Positions 20,820 through 56,073 of a stretch of 64,000 nt of DNA are shown here, piece by piece (position 1 is the first letter of the stretch; the number at the start of each line of letters is the position of its first letter). Where the stretch lies: positions 1-64,000 of the forward strand of contig JAVKOQ020000092.1 in assembly GCA_031835245.2 (NCBI GenBank). Reading direction: 5' to 3'. The DNA comes from Balamuthia mandrillaris (lineage: Eukaryota). Made by a program: the position numbers and the translations under genes. The notes beneath the pieces were generated by a model, which had not been told where the DNA came from, did not search any database, and was given only the letters and a program-made list of their open reading frames with translations.

Positions 20820-22376
20820 TCAGAAACGCTGAAACACACCATTGTTTTTCTCGACCTTTGCCCACCACTCATTCAGTCCATGAACATCCAAAGCATCGTA
20901 AAACATGAACCACCAGACCGAGGCCGCGTCTTTCGGTATGTTCTCTATCGGTTTGTCCCTAGCCGTCTTCCTGTCCGCCTTATTGTGGCTCAACCATAGC
21001 TTTTCAAACTTTGTGGAGGAGGCCATGTGGAACAGGCGCATGGGGTGATAGGCATTCCGTCGCACGTTGTAGGCATACGGCAGGTACCGCAGCCCTCGTT
21101 CTGGTTGGTCGAAGAACTTGCGAAGGAAGGGCAGGTCCGCCACGCAACCCTTCGTGCGGAACATGGACCTCCAATCTGCCAAAAGCTCGCTCGTGATCTG
21201 GCTCGATGGACGCAGCACCAACAACCCTGAATTAACGAAGGTCTTCATCTCGGATCCTTTGTCCTCGTCGGTCGGAGGAGAAAAGCGAGCAGCGTATATC
21301 TGATGAGGCTGCAATGGAAGCCGGAAGAGTTCGTCCAGGTTGTCCAAGAGCATGATGTCGCAGTCGAGATAGACCAGCCGGTCATACTCTGTGAGGTTCC
21401 ACACGTGGAACCGCATGTGCTCTCCTGGGAACTGCGCTAAGAGGGAGTCAGGTTGAGCAGCTTCATGCTGGCAATCCAAGGGAGGCCGTTCCAGCAGCTT
21501 CCAACCAGACTTGGTGAGGACCTCTCTGGCCTCCTTGCTGACCTCGGAGCTGATGATGGCCAAGAGGTTGTCCGTCAAGCAGGAGAACTTGTGGATGGAG
21601 TGGGCCAGAGCTATGGCTGGGATGACGTAGGCATCATTGATGGTGGCTGTCACCCATCCCACTTTGCCTTCCACTTTCGCTAGCAGTTCAGTGTCATCAT
21701 AGTTGAGACGCTGTTGGCAGTAGAGCTGCGAGTTGTGCCAGAGAAAGCGTCGATGCTCGAACTCGGTGAAGGCCATCATTCTGTAGAGGTCGTTCCTTTC
21801 AGCGATGTGAAAGGCTGTGGGATCCTCCTCGAAGCCATCATTGTCTGCAGCGGACAAGACGCCCTGCCCTTTGGCCCCTTTGCTCTTGCTGGGGAGGTGA
21901 GCGTAATGAAAGGAGGGATCCTTCTTTGCATCAACATAGTAACATTTCATTGTTCTAGTGGAGACATCGTGGTAACAATGTTCAATCTTTCCTTGTGGCT
22001 TACTGCCAGCATCGCCGCCAGGCATGTTGGAGAGGCCAATAGAAGGAGACTGTTCTTCTTGGTTTTCAGCTTCTTCTCGTTTCATCTCGGTAGTGGAGCT
22101 GCGAGCTGGCTCAGGTTGGAGAGAAGAGTCCTGAGGCCCTCGTTGAAGAGGGATCCCGCTCTTTACGCTGCTGGTGAAGGTGGTAGAGGAAAGAAACGAA
22201 GGAGACGAAAGCTCAGAAGGGAGAGAGAACCCGAGTTGAGTCTGCTGAAGGGCGTTGTTCGACTGCCGGAAAGAAACGAAAAAATACCAATTGCAAACAA
22301 CGGAGAGGGCAAGAAGGAACAGCAGGACCAAGTGGCTTCGTTCCGTCCTCCGGTGAAGTGCTGCCAGGTGGAGCAT
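20820..22376 (-). CDS. GT8 (glycogenin-like) glycosyltransferase, type II membrane, paralogue 1
   Basis: N-terminal TM; 'NDAYVIPAIALAHSI', 'VWNLTEYDRLVYLDCD' (DxD), 'NSGLLVLRPS', 'LPYAYN'; intronless. Confidence 0.88.
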   Translation of the reverse strand: MLHLAALHRRTERSHLVLLFLLALSVVCNWYFFVSFRQSNNALQQTQLGFSLPSELSSPSFLSSTTFTSSVKSGIPLQRGPQDSSLQPEPARSSTTEMKREEAENQEEQSPSIGLSNMPGGDAGSKPQGKIEHCYHDVSTRTMKCYYVDAKKDPSFHYAHLPSKSKGAKGQGVLSAADNDGFEEDPTAFHIAERNDLYRMMAFTEFEHRRFLWHNSQLYCQQRLNYDDTELLAKVEGKVGWVTATINDAYVIPAIALAHSIHKFSCLTDNLLAIISSEVSKEAREVLTKSGWKLLERPPLDCQHEAAQPDSLLAQFPGEHMRFHVWNLTEYDRLVYLDCDIMLLDNLDELFRLPLQPHQIYAARFSPPTDEDKGSEMKTFVNSGLLVLRPSSQITSELLADWRSMFRTKGCVADLPFLRKFFDQPERGLRYLPYAYNVRRNAYHPMRLFHMASSTKFEKLWLSHNKADRKTARDKPIENIPKDAASVWWFMFYDALDVHGLNEWWAKVEKNNGVFQRF

Positions 22377-22713
22377 TATCTTGCTCGCTTAGCAAACGTT
22401 TGCTTCTCTGATATCAACCCTTTATACCTGCTTGCTGCTCTGAAAAACTGTAAAAAAGGTAATTATCTAGATTGTAAAACAGGAAGCAACAACAAGCACG
22501 TTATACAAGGCTTCCAAACAATAACAAAAGAAGGAGAGAACGTTGCCAGTCCCTTCCTTCCGCACGTCCGTCGGACTCGCGAAAGTCACCTCTTCAGCTC
22601 CAAGGTTACTCTGTTTATTTTTCCCTGCCAGAGTGATGATGTTTTGTCTGTTGAAGAAAAGTCAGCATTGGTTGGTCAAGAGAATAAGAAAACAGCCGCG
22701 ACGTACGTTGACA

Positions 22714-24084
22714 TCAGTTGCGCCCCCATTGGGAGGTGGCCTTTGATGCAACCTTTGCCCACCAGTCCTGCAGGCCATAGGCATCCAGAGCATCGTAAAA
22801 CATGAACCACCAGACGGAAGCCACGTCGGCTGGCACGTTCTGTATCGGCTTGTCTGCTGCGTTTTTCCTGCTCACCACGTTGCTGCCCAACCATAGCTTT
22901 TCATTCTTTGTGAAGCCAGCCATGTGGAACAGGCGCATGGGGTGATAGGCGTTCCGTCGCACGTTGTAGGCATACGGCAGGTACCGCAGACCTCGCCTAG
23001 GTTGGTCGAAGAACCTGCGTAGGAAGGGCTGGTCTGCCATGCAGCCCGTTGTTTTGAACAGAGACCGCCAGTCTTGCAGTAGCTCGCTCGTGATCTGGCT
23101 TGATGGGCGCAGCACCAACAGGCCCGAGTTGATGCCTGTCTTCAACTCGTGCTTGTCGTCGGGAGGTGCAAAGTGAGCGGCATATATTTGTCCAAGCTCC
23201 AAAGGCAGGCGGAAGATCTCGTCAATGTTGTCCAAGAGCATGATGTCGCAGTCGAGGTAGACCAGCCGGTCATACTCTGTGAGGTTCCACACGTGGAACC
23301 GCATGTGCTCTCCTGGGAACTTGGCTAAAGCGCCATCAGGCCGACCACCTTGATGCTGGCAATCCAAGGGAGGTCGTTCCAGCAGCTTCCAACCAGCCTT
23401 GGTGAGGACCTCTCTGGCCTCCTTGCTGACCTCGGAGCTGATGATGGCCAAGAGGTTGTCCGTCAAGCAGGAGAACTTGTGGATGGAGTGGGCCAGAGCT
23501 ATGGCTGGGATGACGTAGGCATCATTGATGGTGGCTGTCACCCATCCCACCTTGCCTTCATCATCAGTTGTGTCGCTGAACCGTTGCCGACAGAAACGCT
23601 CAGAGTTGTGCCAGAGGAAACGTCGGTGCTGAAAGTCGGTGAAGGCCATCATCGTTTGGAGGTCTTTGAGCTCGGCTTCGCGGAAGGCTTCAGGGTCCTC
23701 CGGAAATTTATTGTTGTTGGCCGTGGTCAAGACCTCTCCTTCTCCTTGCAAGGTTTTTGTTGCAATGTGGCCATACCGGAGGTCAAAACCGTCGTAAGAA
23801 ATGGTTTTCGTTTGAGCCTCGCAAGCTTGTTTGTCGTCTTGGATACATTTTTCGGCCCCAGCTGGTCGCTCTACTTGTTCGTTGGAGACAGCGACAGAAG
23901 GAGAAACCGAAGACTCCAGGGTTTCTCTGAGAGCGGTGCCTTGTAGTGGGAGGTAGGTTCCGCGGGGCGAGGGCTGCGGAGAAAGAAAGAAAAAATACAA
24001 ATTGAAAAAAAGGGAGAGGGAAAGAAGGAGCAGCAAGCCCTTGTGAGGCCGTCCTATCATCCTGTCCAGCGCGGTCAACGCCAT
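22714..24084 (-). CDS. GT8 glycosyltransferase, paralogue 2
   Basis: Same motifs plus 'ADQPFL'; tandem copy. Confidence 0.88.
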   Translation of the reverse strand: MALTALDRMIGRPHKGLLLLLSLSLFFNLYFFFLSPQPSPRGTYLPLQGTALRETLESSVSPSVAVSNEQVERPAGAEKCIQDDKQACEAQTKTISYDGFDLRYGHIATKTLQGEGEVLTTANNNKFPEDPEAFREAELKDLQTMMAFTDFQHRRFLWHNSERFCRQRFSDTTDDEGKVGWVTATINDAYVIPAIALAHSIHKFSCLTDNLLAIISSEVSKEAREVLTKAGWKLLERPPLDCQHQGGRPDGALAKFPGEHMRFHVWNLTEYDRLVYLDCDIMLLDNIDEIFRLPLELGQIYAAHFAPPDDKHELKTGINSGLLVLRPSSQITSELLQDWRSLFKTTGCMADQPFLRRFFDQPRRGLRYLPYAYNVRRNAYHPMRLFHMAGFTKNEKLWLGSNVVSRKNAADKPIQNVPADVASVWWFMFYDALDAYGLQDWWAKVASKATSQWGRN

Positions 24085-24282
24085 TGCTATGTTTATTGTG
24101 CTCCGCTTCTTCCTCGTCTTCCTTTCGTATTCGCCTCGGTCTCAGCAACAGCGGGTAATGTAGGATCGGAGAAATGCCTAAAAGGAAAGCGTAGATGAGA
24201 AGAGTTAATTTAATAATTAATCCCCAACCAATTATATAACAACTGCAATCATTCAAATAGCCGCTCATCAACTGTTGCTCTC

Positions 24283-25653
24283 TCATAGCTTGCGATGCCA
24301 ATTCTTGACGGTGTGTTGGGCGTTGAGCCACCAGGCATGCAAGTCGTAGGCATCCAACGCGTCGTAAAACATGAACCACCACACCGAGGCCGCATCCTTT
24401 GGCACCTCCAAGATAGGCACGTCTCTCGCTTCTTCCTTCCTCCGTACCACGTTCTCTCCCAACCACAACTTTGCCTCCTCGCCCCCGGCCATGTGGAAGA
24501 GACGCATGGGGTGATAGGCCTGCCGTCGCACGTTGTAGGCGTAGGGCAACCATCGCAGCCCTTGCGAGGGTCTGTCGAAGAAGCGATGGAGGTAGGGCTG
24601 ATCCGCAATGCATCCCTCCTTCTTGAACAATCCTTGCCAGTCTTTGATGAGGTCCTTTGCCGTCTTGCTGGAAGGACGCAGCACCAGCATGCCCGAGTTG
24701 ATGCTTCTCTTGTTGTGTCCGGGAGCTCCAAAGTGAGCGGCATAAACCTGACCGACGGATAATGGAAGGCGGAAGAGTTCGTCCAGGTTATCCAAGAGCA
24801 TGATGTCGCAGTCCACATAGATCAGCCGGTCATACTCGGTGAGGTTCCACACGTGGAACCGCATGTGCTCCCCTGGGAACCTCGCGTACTGGTTCTGCGC
24901 TCGCGCTCCCTCGTGCTTACAATCCAAGGGAGGCCGTTCCAGCACCTGCCAACCGGCCCGGGCGAGGGCTTCCCTGGACTCAGGCCCCACGTCATAGCTG
25001 ACGATGGCCAAGAGGTTGTCCGCGTGGCAGGAGAACTTGCGGATGGAGTGGGCCAAGGCCACGGCCGGGATGACGTAGGCATCGTTGATGGTGGCCGTCA
25101 CCCATCCCACCTTGCCGCCTTCTCCCGTGCTTGTGTAGGCCTGCTGACAGCAAAAGAGCTCCGAGTTGCTCCAGAGGAAGCGTCGGTGATTGTACTCGGT
25201 GAGGGCCATCATCATGTGAAGGTCCTCGAGCTCCACCTCACGGAAGGCTTCGGCGTCTTCCGGGGAGTTCAACCTGTTCTGTGCGACGGATATAAGGTCT
25301 GTGGGTGCTTCCTCTTCCGTCGTGTTGCTCTTGATGCTCCTTGTGGAGAGGTGGTATTGAATGCGTTGGGCGAGGTCCGCGTCGTCGATGTAGTTGAGCG
25401 TTTCACATGTTTTGGAGGAAGCAGAAGCAGGTCGAGGAGGAGAGGAAGGAGGAGAAGGAGAAAGAGGAAAAGAGGAGGTAAGCGGCGGTGGACGGGAGTA
25501 AGGAGCGCCGTCGCGAACGGGGCGGATTTGCTTCGTGGTGGTTTGGTAGGATGAGAAGAAAAAAACCCAGTTGGAGAAGAGAGAGACCACCAACAACAGG
25601 AGGAGCACCAGGTTCGGTCGTCCCACTCGCAAGCTGAGCCGCCGCACCGCCAT
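24283..25653 (-). CDS. GT8 glycosyltransferase, paralogue 3
   Basis: Same motifs; tandem copy. Confidence 0.88.
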   Translation of the reverse strand: MAVRRLSLRVGRPNLVLLLLLVVSLFSNWVFFFSSYQTTTKQIRPVRDGAPYSRPPPLTSSFPLSPSPPSSPPRPASASSKTCETLNYIDDADLAQRIQYHLSTRSIKSNTTEEEAPTDLISVAQNRLNSPEDAEAFREVELEDLHMMMALTEYNHRRFLWSNSELFCCQQAYTSTGEGGKVGWVTATINDAYVIPAVALAHSIRKFSCHADNLLAIVSYDVGPESREALARAGWQVLERPPLDCKHEGARAQNQYARFPGEHMRFHVWNLTEYDRLIYVDCDIMLLDNLDELFRLPLSVGQVYAAHFGAPGHNKRSINSGMLVLRPSSKTAKDLIKDWQGLFKKEGCIADQPYLHRFFDRPSQGLRWLPYAYNVRRQAYHPMRLFHMAGGEEAKLWLGENVVRRKEEARDVPILEVPKDAASVWWFMFYDALDAYDLHAWWLNAQHTVKNWHRKL

Positions 25654-34409: not shown

Positions 34410-35696
34410 ATGGAACAGCTCCACCGAGCACTCGGCCGGCCGAACAGAGTGCTGCTGGTGCTTTTGGGGCTCTCTCTCGCAGCCAACTGGGTGTTTCTCT
34501 TTTCGGCCAGGTCCAGCCTGTCGTCCGGCGAGGCCAGAAACTGCGAGTTTCTGCAAAGACAAAAGCAGAGGGAGGCCCCGTTGACCGCGGAGAATCCGAC
34601 GACGGCGGGGGGCCTCCTCCTTCAAGGCTGTCCCTTCCCCGCTTTCAACTCCGGCGATGAGGACATGAAGCAAGCCTTTCGGTTCTCCCACGTTGCCAAC
34701 CGGACGCTCGACGTCAAGTCGTTTTCGACCGTCACGGTGGCACAAAACAAGGCCTTCAACGAAAACATGACCGCCTTCTACCAGGCCGAGCAGCAGGACC
34801 TCCAAACGGTGATGGCCCTGACGGAGTACAAGCACCGACGCTTTCTCTGGCACCACTCCCACCTCTTCTGCTGCTCCGAGGCATCAACGCTCTACGAGAA
34901 AGTGGGATGGGTGACGGCCACCATCAACGATGCCTACGTCATCCCGGCCGTGGCCTTGGCCCACTCCATCCGCAAGTTCTCCTGCCACGCGGACAACCTC
35001 TTGGCCATCGTTAGCGAGGAGGTCAGCGAGCAGTCCAGGGAAGCCCTCGCCCGGGCCGGTTGGCAGGTGCTGGAACGGCCTCCCTTGGATTGTCAGCACC
35101 AAGGCGGACGACCCACGGATCCAACGGCCAAGTTCCCAGGGGAGCACATGCGCTTCCACGTGTGGAACCTCATCGACTACGACCGGCTGATCTATGTGGA
35201 CTGCGACATCATGCTCCTGGACAACATCGATGAGCTCTTCCACCTGCCTTTGCCTCACGGTCAGATCTACGCCGCTCATTTCGATCCTCCTGGCAGTCGG
35301 CACAACAGCATCAACTCGGGCTTGTTGGTGCTGCGTCCTTCCAGCAAGACCTCCCAGGAGCTCATCCGGGAGTGGCAGGGCTTGTTCTCCACCGCTGGAT
35401 GCCTGCCGGACCAGCCGTACCTTCGTCGATTCTTTGACCGGCCCTCGCAAGGGCTGCGATGGTTGCCCTACGCCTACAACGTGCGGCGGCAGGCCTTCCA
35501 TCCCATGCGCCTCTTCCACATGGCCGGGGGCAAGGAGTACAAGCTGTGGTTGGGAGAGAACGCGGTGAGGAACAAGGGAGAGGCCAGGGATGTGCCTATC
35601 ATGCAGGTGCCCAAGGACGTGGCCTCCGTTTGGTGGTTCATCTTCTACGATGCGTTGGATGCTTACGGCTTGCACGACTGGTGGCAAAACCTCTGA
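34410..35696 (+). CDS. GT8 glycosyltransferase, paralogue 4 (inverted, dispersed copy)
   Basis: Same motifs; long near-identical tracts shared with paralogue 3. Confidence 0.88.
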   Translation: MEQLHRALGRPNRVLLVLLGLSLAANWVFLFSARSSLSSGEARNCEFLQRQKQREAPLTAENPTTAGGLLLQGCPFPAFNSGDEDMKQAFRFSHVANRTLDVKSFSTVTVAQNKAFNENMTAFYQAEQQDLQTVMALTEYKHRRFLWHHSHLFCCSEASTLYEKVGWVTATINDAYVIPAVALAHSIRKFSCHADNLLAIVSEEVSEQSREALARAGWQVLERPPLDCQHQGGRPTDPTAKFPGEHMRFHVWNLIDYDRLIYVDCDIMLLDNIDELFHLPLPHGQIYAAHFDPPGSRHNSINSGLLVLRPSSKTSQELIREWQGLFSTAGCLPDQPYLRRFFDRPSQGLRWLPYAYNVRRQAFHPMRLFHMAGGKEYKLWLGENAVRNKGEARDVPIMQVPKDVASVWWFIFYDALDAYGLHDWWQNL

Positions 35697-51605: not shown

Positions 51606-54038
51606 ATGGGCGACAAACCGAGTCTTCACGGGATGGCTGAGGAAGAAGTGGCGGAAGAAGAAGAAGCAGAAGCGGATGAAGGAGAAGAAAGAGACAACTT
51701 GATGGGACTTGGAGGTCCAGGAACGGACGTGAGTGCCACAGCGACCGCTGCAAGTGGTGACGCTGCTCTCCGATCCCTAAGGCACATCGAAAAACCCGCA
51801 AAAGAAGGAGATCCGCAAGAGGAACTGCATGCAGCGCCAATAGAGCACGCTCTTTTATCTTCTCCCTCTCCTTCGTCCTCTGCTTCTTCCTCTGCTTCGC
51901 TTTTTGCTGCCAACAACAGCACTTTTACCACCCTCTCTCCCTCGTTCTCCCTTTCTCCAACGCTCTCCTCCACCGCTGCCTCTTTCTTGCCTCCTCCACA
52001 CTACCTTCCCCCGACCTCATCGTCCTCAGCGACAACAACAACAAACCACTCAATACGACTCTACTCGTCCTCTTCTTCCCCTGCTCTGACCTCAGTCTCA
52101 GCTTCTTCTGACTTATCACCCTCCATCCAGCCACAACAACCGCCACAACAGCTGCCACACTCTGCTCCTCCCCTTTCTCACTCAGCTGCTTCCGTGACGC
52201 CAGCGTTGGTGGCGGCTGACAAATATCCTACTACGGCCTCTAGAGCACACTCCACCACCACTGCACCAACGACGAGCTTCTATGCTTCTCCTTCTTTATC
52301 TTCTCAGGTAGAATTTTATGCTCTCTCTCTCTCTCTCTCTCTCACCCTCTCTCACTCTCACTCTCACTCTCACTCCTTTCTCTCTGTCTCTCTCTGTCTG
52401 TCTCTCTGGTGTTTATTTCTCTTCTCTTCTTCACCCATAACGCATTCTTTGAACAACAGCAAGCAATACCAAGCGTGCCGCTCTCTATGTTTCCTGTTCA
52501 CAAGGCAAACAACCACCTGACAACTAACTCCACTGGCACTAGAGCGTTCTCGCTTTCTCCTTCTTTAGCTCCTCATGCTCCATTTGTATATACTCACCCC
52601 TATCATCGCCATCAGCCCATTCATCCATATCCACCATCACCACTGCCACCTGCACCATCAACTTCAGCGACCATTATATCGCCACAACAACGTCTTCATT
52701 CTTCTGTTATTCACTCTTCTCCGTTGCCGTCATCATCTTTTTCTGCTTCTTCCTGTTCTTCTATCCCTTCTCCCTCTTCCTCTTCCTCTTCCTCCTCTTC
52801 CTCTACTTCCCTGTCTTCTTTCTTGTCTTCGTCATCATATGAAACACAGAAAATAGAAAACGAACAACCACTGGAAGCACAAAGAGAATCCGAGAACGTA
52901 AGTTTAAAACGGAGGGCCAGCGCAGAGAATGCAGCTGACGGTGATAGTGAACCCGAAGATGAAGAAGGAGAAGAAGATGGAAGAGAGGAAAGAGAAGGAA
53001 ACAGAGAAACTACTCGCGAATTTCTTTTTCGCATGGGTGAAAGAATAGGAAAGAACAAAGAGGAGGTGATGCCTTTCGTTCTGAAATTAGAAGCTGAGTG
53101 GCTGTTGTACAGTAGGCAGCTCAAATCGCTCAGCGAAGAGTCGCTGTTGCGGTTGGGTTTGCCTCTAGGACTCATTGCTGAAATGAAAAAGTGTCTTCAT
53201 CCTACGCCGGTGCCACCCAACTTTCTTAAGTTCAAGGTTAGTTTTGCGCTCTTTCTTATCGTTTCTTTCTTTTTTTTTCCACCGTTTGTTTTTAATATTT
53301 GTTTGCCTTTCTTTGATGTTTGGTTTAAACGTTCTTCACAGTGGGAATACAAAGATAAGAACAAAGGAGGAGGTGGACGGAAGCGAAAAACTCTTTCTCT
53401 CAATGAATGGGCAGCTAAAGTGGAACGTTTTGCCAAAGAGACTAATCACAGCGTAACTCCTTTTTATGTGCCGTCCGTCTATCAAGTAGAGTGCTTTTGC
53501 TGTGGCTCTGCTGTTAACATGAATAAGCCTGGTATGGTTATTATCCTTCTCCTTCTCGTCTTCTAGAAATTTGTTATAAACATGCCCGTGCAACCCATAA
53601 AAAGGACAACTATATTATTTGAAACGGCACGTACAAGGCGTGCAACCTGATAGGCCAAGCAATCATTCCAAAAACTATCAGCAGTGGCTGAAACAATATA
53701 GCCAACAAGGTTTCAGGCAAAGCAGAGTACGTTCCTACCAACTGACTGATTTTATCTTATACGCGCTGAACTTTCATTATCAGTTCAAAAAAAGGCGGAC
53801 AGACCAAAACCAAGTCCCTATGATATACCATATTTCTAATCCTTCTTATATATCTTATTCATCTTCTGCTTCATCTTCCTCAACTTGTCCTGTCTCCCAC
53901 GACGCAACTTCACTCACTCTTCCGCCATCAAGCGCTGACGATTTTGGTGAACAAGCCAACAAAACTTCAGAAAACGAACCATTGACAACTGCATCCACCC
54001 CTTTGCAACCAAACACAACCGAAGCTAATGCAAGCTGA
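51606..54038 (+). CDS. Ser/Pro-rich putative nuclear protein with SAM-like helical domain and Cys/His zinc-finger-like motif
   Basis: 'LKSLSEESLLRLGLPLGL'; basic 'GRKRK'; 'ECFCCG...KRHV...NHSK'; several introns. Confidence 0.55.
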
Positions 54039-54039
54039 A

Positions 54040-54351
54040 CCCGACGACGTGCGCGACGAAGCGGCCAAGGAGCTGATCATGGCCTTCGCCTCCAACGGGG
54101 CCAAGATGAAGAAGCAGGGCAAGAAGTACAGGTTCTTAGTGGAGGTCGCAAGATCTCCAAGTGTGGAAGCTGTGGCCTGACGGCAAACAGAGACGTCCAT
54201 GCGGCCAGGAACATCCTCCTAAGAGTCGTGGAGCCCTCAACAGGGGGCACAGAAGCGACATTGGGGCTTACCCCCTTTCACCACAACAACGTAGTGGATG
54301 CAAGACTTGTGCAAGTTTGGCCAGGGTTGTTAAGTTTTGTACAAGTTTAAT
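54040..54351 (+). mobile_element. Internally deleted Fanzor2/TnpB-like element remnant with putative omegaRNA / right end
   Basis: 'PDDVRDEAAKELIMAFASNGAKMKKQGKKYRF' (54040-54135) joined in another frame to 'GGRKISKCGSCGLTANRDVHAARNILLR' (to 54224), followed by a hairpin-rich tail. Confidence 0.8.
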
Positions 54352-54413
54352 AGTAGGAGAAGATAATGCAAGTTACCAGCTTCATGCGCTTTTATTTTCC
54401 TCCCTTCAGAAAC

Positions 54414-55882: not shown

Positions 55883-56011
55883 CTGCTGACCACCGGAAAG
55901 GAAGAGCGGAAAACGCCCCGGCAGCACCTCAGTCAAGGGGCACAGGACCTACAACCAGGCCGTGGAGTTCCATCGTGAACATATAGGAATGGCTCTTAAG
56001 GAGACGAACCC
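55883..56011 (+). mobile_element. Probable degenerate N-terminal fragment of a Fanzor2/TnpB ORF
   Basis: 'LLTTGKEERKTPRQH' then, frameshifted, 'RTYNQAVEF...LKET', resembling the TnpB/OrfB N-terminal 'PTxEQ...R(W)TYN' region. Confidence 0.45.
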
Positions 56012-56025
56012 AAACAGCTGCGAAG

Positions 56026-56073
56026 AAGTTTGCTTTGGTGCCGGCACCCTTGCCTATAGCGAGTAGTCAGATG
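56026..56073. repeat. 48-nt dispersed repeat, copy B
   Basis: 43/48 identical to 2836-2883. Confidence 0.85.

Follow-up and report, generated by a model that had tools for sequence, protein, structure and literature searches.

Between two convergent genes of Balamuthia mandrillaris, whose GT-AG introns mark the host as eukaryotic, lies a short GC-rich insert with nearly the same 13 bases on either side, and the question that this locus raises is what the insert is and how it came to carry such a repeat. We examined it within a window of 64,000 nucleotides, this being the whole stretch of DNA analysed (contig JAVKOQ020000092.1, positions 1 to 64,000). An earlier note on this DNA, made from the letters alone, had read the insert as a TnpB/Fanzor2-type remnant overlapped by an omegaRNA-type scaffold, had taken it for a non-autonomous derivative able to supply a guide in trans against a neighbouring gene, and had proposed as checks a profile search with both peptides, a search for further copies and an analysis of covariation. 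The features of the locus are collected in Table 1.

Table 1 Features of the insert and its junctions (positions within the window)
Feature	Position	Strand	Basis
CCG, candidate TAM, directly 5′ of the left repeat copy	54019..54021	+	Sequence; CG is the family's commonest junction dinucleotide
Direct repeat, left copy, 13 nt (15 with junction dinucleotide)	54022..54034	+	12/13 match to 54360-54372; 13/14 with shared G
Fanzor2 fragment 1, PxDVRDEA region, profile positions ~123-162; copy starts within ORF	54035..54135	+	E 2.4e-6, 1.1e-4; z 8.2
Internal deletion junction, frame change, ~243 codons gone	54135..54141	+	Motif spacing in relatives
Fanzor2 fragment 2, second CxxC and RuvC-III RD motif	54141..54224	+	PF07282, NF040570, 9b0l, profile
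RD-motif Asp codon	54192-54194	+	Within fragment 2
TAA up to which the fragment 2 frame is open	54348-54350	+	Sequence
First stem of omegaRNA scaffold, predicted	54225..54259	+	Fold; 11 nt gone in three other runs
Conserved hairpin	54261..54274	+	Comparison with relatives
Predicted pseudoknot, 5′ strand	54267-54271	+	Hairpin loop bases
Predicted middle stem	54277-54298	+	Fold
Conserved TGCA linker between middle and terminal stems	part of 54277..54348	+	Relatives
Predicted terminal stem	54303-54348	+	Fold
Predicted pseudoknot, 3′ strand, and last bases of the element	54353..54357	+	4 Watson-Crick pairs and 1 G.U with loop
Junction dinucleotide AG	54358-54359	+	Mapping from relatives
Direct repeat, right copy; predicted guide start	54360..54372	+	Repeat search
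Predicted guide if transcribed; host flank	54360..54380	+	Position inferred from relatives

Identity of the insert and its protein remnants

The stretch from 54035 to 54357 is almost certainly a remnant of a Fanzor2 of the IS607 type. Two peptides lie on its + strand in different frames, where the earlier note had put them, namely PDDVRDEAA...KYRF (fragment 1, from 54040) and GGRKISKCGSCG...NILLR (fragment 2), and the insert is indeed GC-rich, with a GC fraction of 0.58 over 54035-54224, whereas the left and right flanks have 0.43 and 0.39, respectively. Fragment 2 matched the Pfam family PF07282 (E 1.5e-5, with a score of 25.5 slightly below the curated cut-off of 26.3) and the NCBIfam model NF040570 (guided_TnpB; E 1.4e-4), and its closest structure in the PDB was the mimivirus Fanzor2 ApmFz2 (9b0l; E 0.018). 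Fragment 1 alone had no family match in the profile libraries, no PDB match and nothing by database word search, and word-based protein searches with each peptide singly gave 0/18 and 0/2 candidates. A protein search with fragment 2 returned nine proteins, seven of which were TnpB-like; P0001 and P0002 from the same search proved to be unrelated repeat proteins and were dropped. One of the seven, the 485 aa protein P0006, chosen independently of fragment 1, aligned fragment 1 upstream and in the correct order, with a z value of 8.2 against 200 shuffles. In addition, a profile of 18 proteins, 16 of them found by a query that contained the window peptides, was searched against the window in 2217 six-frame pieces and hit nothing but the two fragments (E 2e-15 and 2.4e-6), and a second profile built from 59 metagenome loci matched them at E 1e-9 and 1.1e-4. 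Both by profile position and by alignment to P0006, the fragments are collinear with full-length relatives. The proposed profile search has thus matched both peptides, and the assignment to a TnpB/Fanzor2-type remnant holds by Pfam, NCBIfam, PDB and the two profiles.

The same comparisons indicate what the copy has lost. Its two motifs are 41 aa apart, compared with a median of 284 aa (263-314, n=46) in relatives; approximately 243 codons are missing between the fragments, and with them the RuvC-I Asp, the RuvC-II Glu (both losses already recognized in the earlier note) and the first CxxC, which is half of the zinc finger. Approximately 120 N-terminal residues are also gone, and of the zinc finger and RD region of a TnpB-type C-terminus only the second CxxC and the RD remain. 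A Glu stands 6-7 residues before the zinc finger in 94 of 94 non-redundant relatives, a placement described for Fanzors and pro-Fanzors (PMC11832414); this shifted RuvC-II Glu, and with it a complete catalytic triad, is absent here through the deletion. No left end was recognizable, and no serine-recombinase motif of the YARVSS type, as in the TnpA of IS607, was found in six frames of the window; this motif occurred in 38 of 80 metagenome loci. The copy is dead, truncated at its 5′ side and deleted internally, and is unable to cut or to move unaided. Because it has no left end and starts within the ORF, a mobile non-autonomous derivative finds no support.

We drew on 240 related loci (80 metagenome, 80 viral and 80 GTDB), and the family of the window copy already has many full-length members. 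Fragment 1 scored 14.4 bits with the metagenome profile, 9.0 with the viral and 2.5 with the GTDB profile, and a tree on 69 residues loosely grouped the window copy with P0011 among viral sequences (support 0.68-0.93, with a long-branch artefact possible), without separating a Fanzor2 from a prokaryotic pro-Fanzor position. Searches of viral contigs with fragment 2 or P0006 gave none that was confirmed. Among the relatives, P0020 comes from a transcriptome in EukProt under the label 'Mycagemm', an amoebozoan. Amoebal families of Fanzor2 are already known (PMC3627910). Among the related loci, L124-L204, L207 and L327 form one clade of IS607-type Fanzor2/pro-Fanzor elements. Their right-end RNA is compact, its pseudoknot covaries across nine or more loop/end pairs, and its hairpin is often translated as LGLTP or ALRPTS at the C-terminus of the protein. 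Elsewhere in the window, a frame at 55890-56063 (RTYNQAVE) that resembled a Fanzor N-terminus gave no score against the relatives or their profile and was rejected.

Right end and predicted omegaRNA scaffold

Judged against its relatives, the 3′ tail of the insert is an omegaRNA-type right end that overlaps the tail of the ORF, as had been proposed. Folding energy alone was weak, with z values of -1.44 for 54200-54351 (15/200 shuffles as good) and -1.96 for 54222-54357 (6/200). A sequence profile of 19 relatives, from which the window was excluded, matched 54261-54357 with an E value of 7.6e-10, the runner-up being at 0.03. The tails of relatives were located in 165 of the 240 loci; 44 of these 165 carry the small hairpin, and in 17 distinct cases the end could be placed independently of the loop. 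In 15 of the 17, all five loop bases are paired to the five final bases of the element, with nine different loop/end pairs represented, and the mean over all 17 was 4.65 of 5 compared with 2.76 when the ends were shuffled among loci (0/10,000 shuffles). In an alignment of 19 relatives (A4), four of the five pseudoknot pairs vary on both sides; its 99% pairing is inflated because the ends were partly picked by complementarity, and the count over 17 cases is less biased. The pseudoknot therefore covaries in relatives, and loop-to-end pseudoknots of this kind are known for IS607 TnpB and Fanzor2 (bioRxiv 2023.08.09.552727). The window copy has one G.U among its five pairs, compared with the 15 of 17 relatives that are perfect. 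From the profile of 19 relatives and the loop-to-end pairing, the right end is therefore placed at 54357, followed by a two-base junction, and not at 54351 as first described. The two bases after the pseudoknot strand are CG in 21 and NG in 29 of the 30 relatives with a mapped end, and AG here.

The hairpin at 54263-54274, the middle stem and the terminal stem named in the earlier note are all present in the predicted fold, although the 3′ arm of the terminal stem, quoted as 54338-54347, is 54337-54346, and the stem is longer than had been drawn. From 54261 onward the core pairs throughout, with G.U instead of mismatches; at 54278 and 54320 the window has G.U and other copies have Watson-Crick pairs. 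The whole scaffold is approximately 135 nt. Rfam gave three matches at E 6-8, none over the element, and no family for the right-end copy of the window. The exact 21-base right-end pattern was found 0 times in metagenome contigs, and two further patterns 0 and 0 times in viral contigs; a degenerate pattern of 17 bases hit 120 loci in viral contigs, all of which were chance by blastn/tblastn and were discarded. A right-end model (R1) recovered 3 of 99 other loci, and it is therefore narrow and unsuitable as a family-wide detector.

The locus in four runs and its surroundings

We compared contigs of four runs (X1, X11, X13 and X14), and the figures given here are those among the matches listed. 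The same locus was present in one piece in X1, with both junctions bridged in X11, and partially in X13 and X14. Neither an element-free allele, or a joint skipping the whole insert, nor a full-length copy at the insertion site was found among the matches listed for the four runs. At least five other records in X1 match parts of 54221-54357, and two of them (records 7 and 8) end their match at 54357. The right end is therefore present in several copies and sharply bounded, and the copies sharing a 3′ end that the earlier note asked for exist. Fragment 1 was covered in X1, at 80% likeness and among the matches listed, only by the contig of the same locus; as contigs prove presence and not absence, an intact Fanzor2 is not shown to be missing from X1. 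In X11 the flanks differ by 3-4%, fragment 1 is shorter by 21 nt and the first stem by 11 nt; X13 and X14 share the second of these gaps. The same three runs carry 54190 G>A, which changes the Arg of the RD motif to Lys, and a second X11 contig skips 54073-54243. These differences between runs look like drift. Record 3 of X1, a 5.2-kb contig, matches only 54177-54218, continues NILLRFL and has an in-frame stop just upstream; it is probably what remains of another subfamily, one that is more distant.

The putative left gene (52244-54038) matched no Pfam family convincingly, and its exon chain is tentative, X11 having 2 bases inserted at 53569. The left boundary had been set at 54040; the junction is at 54034/54035, and the insert therefore supplies the stop codon of the left open frame. 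If the insert were taken out, the last open frame of this gene would become approximately 46 codons longer and overlap the end of the convergent gene. The right-hand gene has an AATAAA on the - strand at 54391-54396, 18-23 bases beyond its stop codon, which, if used, would put the 3′ end of its mRNA inside the predicted guide region. Further observations concern the rest of the window. A 48-base motif with a 12-base palindrome within it occurs at 56026-56073 and 2836-2883 with 89.6% identity, the copy at 56026 having no match in Rfam, and could be a small repeat or a regulatory site. Four paralogous segments of ~0.9 kb at 20854-25263 and 34773-35688, three tandem and one inverted, share 71-82% identity and are probably a gene family, and a long AAG/AAC triplet-repeat tract occupies 48470-49290.

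Direct repeat at both junctions

The 13 bases past the right junction recur upstream of the insert, where they stand directly before the first base of element debris, and if 15 bases are counted the two copies differ at two. The 14-mer has two matches in the window against 0.05 expected (0/100 shuffles had two), and a 13/14 match at the same spacing occurred at five other positions of 47,607 tested, i.e. about 1e-4. In addition, the register of the repeat fits both predicted boundaries, the right copy lying at the junction mapped from relatives and the left copy after CG/CCG. Exchange in IS607 is described as taking place over a dinucleotide without target duplication (PMC6188088), a trait of IS607EU from which this locus departs by its direct repeat of 13-15 bp, and the known duplications of Fanzor2 are given as 4-5 nt and accompanied by inverted repeats (bioRxiv 2023.08.09.552727). 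Such a repeat upstream was found in 0 of the 27 relatives with a mapped end, which is a soft control because the contigs of many relatives stop before the left end. Remnants and omegaRNA-only loci are already known; a duplication of TAM plus guide at an IS607-type Fanzor2 was not found in a literature search that covered titles and the openings of abstracts.

Origin of the repeat-flanked remnant

We consider that the flanking repeat of this one locus is likely the scar of an aborted homing event driven by a Fanzor, and we give this reading a probability of roughly 0.6. From left to right, the locus consists of the putative TAM, 13 target bases, the truncated element, the junction, the 13 bases again and the remaining flank, and from this layout we infer a cut, a TAM and a repair path. 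A full element would once have sat after the ...CCG, its omegaRNA would have taken the right flank as guide, and the nuclease would then have cut an element-free sister or homologue approximately 13-20 bases past the TAM. Invasion of the element-bearing copy by the right broken end would have been followed by leftward copying, which took in the 13 flank bases, then the junction and the right end, and finally part of the ORF. The end would then have let go and been end-joined to the left broken end, still carrying the TAM and 13 target bases. The 243-codon deletion could be a template jump during the same repair or a separate event, and the copy would have drifted later. Such one-sided repair would spare the right end, omit the left end and duplicate the bases that start exactly at the right junction, placing them right after the CCG. 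Aborted gap repair can yield deleted transposons. The published cuts of Fanzor2 lie 9-21 bases from the TAM (PMC10432273; PMC10530073), and the TAM of NlovFz2 is 5′-CCG (PMC10432273), values with which the register and the length of the duplication would fit. The TAM is a candidate read from the sequence, and chance would put a CG at any one place roughly once in 20-30 cases, a weak coincidence that counts against the weight that homing can draw from it. Further points against homing are that a single locus is involved, that its two repeat copies differ at two of 15 bases, and that neither an element-free nor a full-length allele was found among the matches listed for the four runs. A role of Fanzors in duplications like those of the CRe elements has been floated before, as highly tentative (PMC10288648).

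A rather unlikely origin is a faulty or one-ended insertion in which TnpA joined the right end only, or the capture of a loose fragment at a break, the duplication being made by host repair with no Fanzor cut. CRe-1/2/3 have been read as one-ended insertions with variable duplications (PMC3627910), and Replitrons make variable duplications too (PMC10288648); however, when a serine recombinase cuts at the dinucleotide, the left end should not receive the 13 bases that lie downstream, and their presence there would still call for another cut or another template, and a random fragment captured at a break need not end at the exact right junction. Distinctly unlikely in our view is that a staggered break received a copy of a Fanzor2 transcript made by machinery of the LINE type. 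Retrotransposition of this type also leaves 13-15-bp duplications with 5′ truncation, both being typical of target-primed reverse transcription, and the other copies in the same runs share their 3′ end and differ upstream. However, there is no poly(A), no donor-derived guide separates the right end from the repeat, which starts at the junction itself, and the family's junction dinucleotide opens the left copy; omegaRNA transcripts are reported to extend 14-21 nt past the end of the element (bioRxiv 2023.08.09.552727; PMC10432273). Although the locus is old enough for genotypes with flanks 3-4% apart and has suffered several independent deletions, we find it hard to believe that a full insertion simply eroded beside a repeat made by chance or by local templated duplication unrelated to the nuclease, as the match alone has a chance rate of about 1e-4 and is in register with both junctions.

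If aborted homing is the origin, the locus might further be a fossil trace of homing by a Fanzor2 endonuclease in the nucleus of a eukaryote, preserving both the enzyme's TAM (CCG) and a minimum cut distance of 13 bases; we put this forward tentatively, as a possibility that falls short of even odds. The truncated product keeps the TAM and 13 guide-matching bases on its left, and so, if this is true, would stay cleavable by its own guide. Repeated cutting with incomplete repair could then erode the ORF and favour seed mismatches such as the one at guide position 4, which would provide a built-in path from a full Fanzor2 to relics that carry the right end and an omegaRNA only, and TAMs might be read from genomes without experiments. 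A scar of this kind would be a countable genomic footprint by which the role of Fanzors in their own hosts becomes testable from assemblies alone, and would also tie the unexplained duplications of Chlamydomonas to the same mechanism. As an editing lead or a regulatory RNA the copy is of low value, because its nuclease is dead and full-length members of its family are already plentiful.

A guide acting in trans

Compatible with an origin by homing, the copy may have persisted as an omegaRNA-only locus whose RNA is loaded into a Fanzor2 encoded elsewhere and directs it in trans, which we hold to be very unlikely. Its hairpin-to-end core, as described above, pairs throughout in the predicted fold, transcription of the left gene could run through the copy, a cell assay showed ghost omegaRNAs of SpuFz1 to be functional (PMC10432273) and long stems can be dispensable (PMC11832414). 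Against this, three other runs have lost stem 1 and one contig has lost half of the copy, and G.U stands at 54278, at 54320 and in the pseudoknot where other copies or relatives pair Watson-Crick. The guide had been placed from ~54350; it would start at ~54360 and, as in every such element, consist of host flank. Within the window its seed matches just one other place, the left repeat copy, so that the copy would find no target there except its own left flank, and that target is mismatched at guide position 4. Fanzors cut double-stranded DNA and not RNA, as shown for SpuFz1 (PMC10432273), and the antisense relation to the 3′ region of the neighbouring gene has no evident consequence for a DNA-cutting enzyme. 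With a guide that matches its own insertion site, an enzyme that cuts double-stranded DNA and a first stem deleted in other genotypes, the idea of a trans guide against the neighbour is unsupported.

Comparison with known systems

The ghost loci of Spu-1 have kept an omegaRNA region and lost the nuclease ORF, as has the window copy (PMC10432273); in contrast, the ghosts retain both ends and are conserved across 134 loci, whereas the present copy has no left end, a junction within the ORF, ORF debris and signs of decay. CRe-1/2/3 of Chlamydomonas, Helitrons that bear Fanzor1, resemble it in their intact 3′ end, 5′ truncation, internal deletion and a 7-19-bp duplication after an insertion motif (PMC3627910). 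They differ in that Fanzor1 is carried in Helitrons at hundreds of loci, with a one-ended rolling-circle reading in the same source, whereas the window holds an IS607-type Fanzor2 at one locus, from a family in which no rolling-circle enzyme is known. The Fanzor2* of TIR transposons from Mya arenaria and from Chloropicon primus shares with it a Fanzor2 with a target duplication (bioRxiv 2023.08.09.552727), but these elements have inverted repeats, duplications of 4-5 nt and a cut-and-paste transposase, and the window copy has 13-15 nt and no left end to pair. Restorative homing by TnpB in bacterial IS605/IS607 is alike in its proposed mechanism, i.e. a cut at TAM plus guide and repair from the copy that bears the element; the available text lists homing as shown for TnpB and IscB only and not for Fanzors, and the window would represent an incomplete product only (PMC13565253). 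Finally, compared with the IS607-type Fanzor2 elements themselves (IS607EU; ApmFz2/L79, 9b0l; ACa-1/-2 of Acanthamoeba castellanii; NlovFz2), the copy is without a transposase, a left end and a catalytic core, has a duplication of 13-15 bp and carries a scaffold shorter than the 247 nt RNA of ApmFz2, but it shares with them the zinc-finger/RD C-terminus and a predicted right-end RNA that closes in a terminal pseudoknot.
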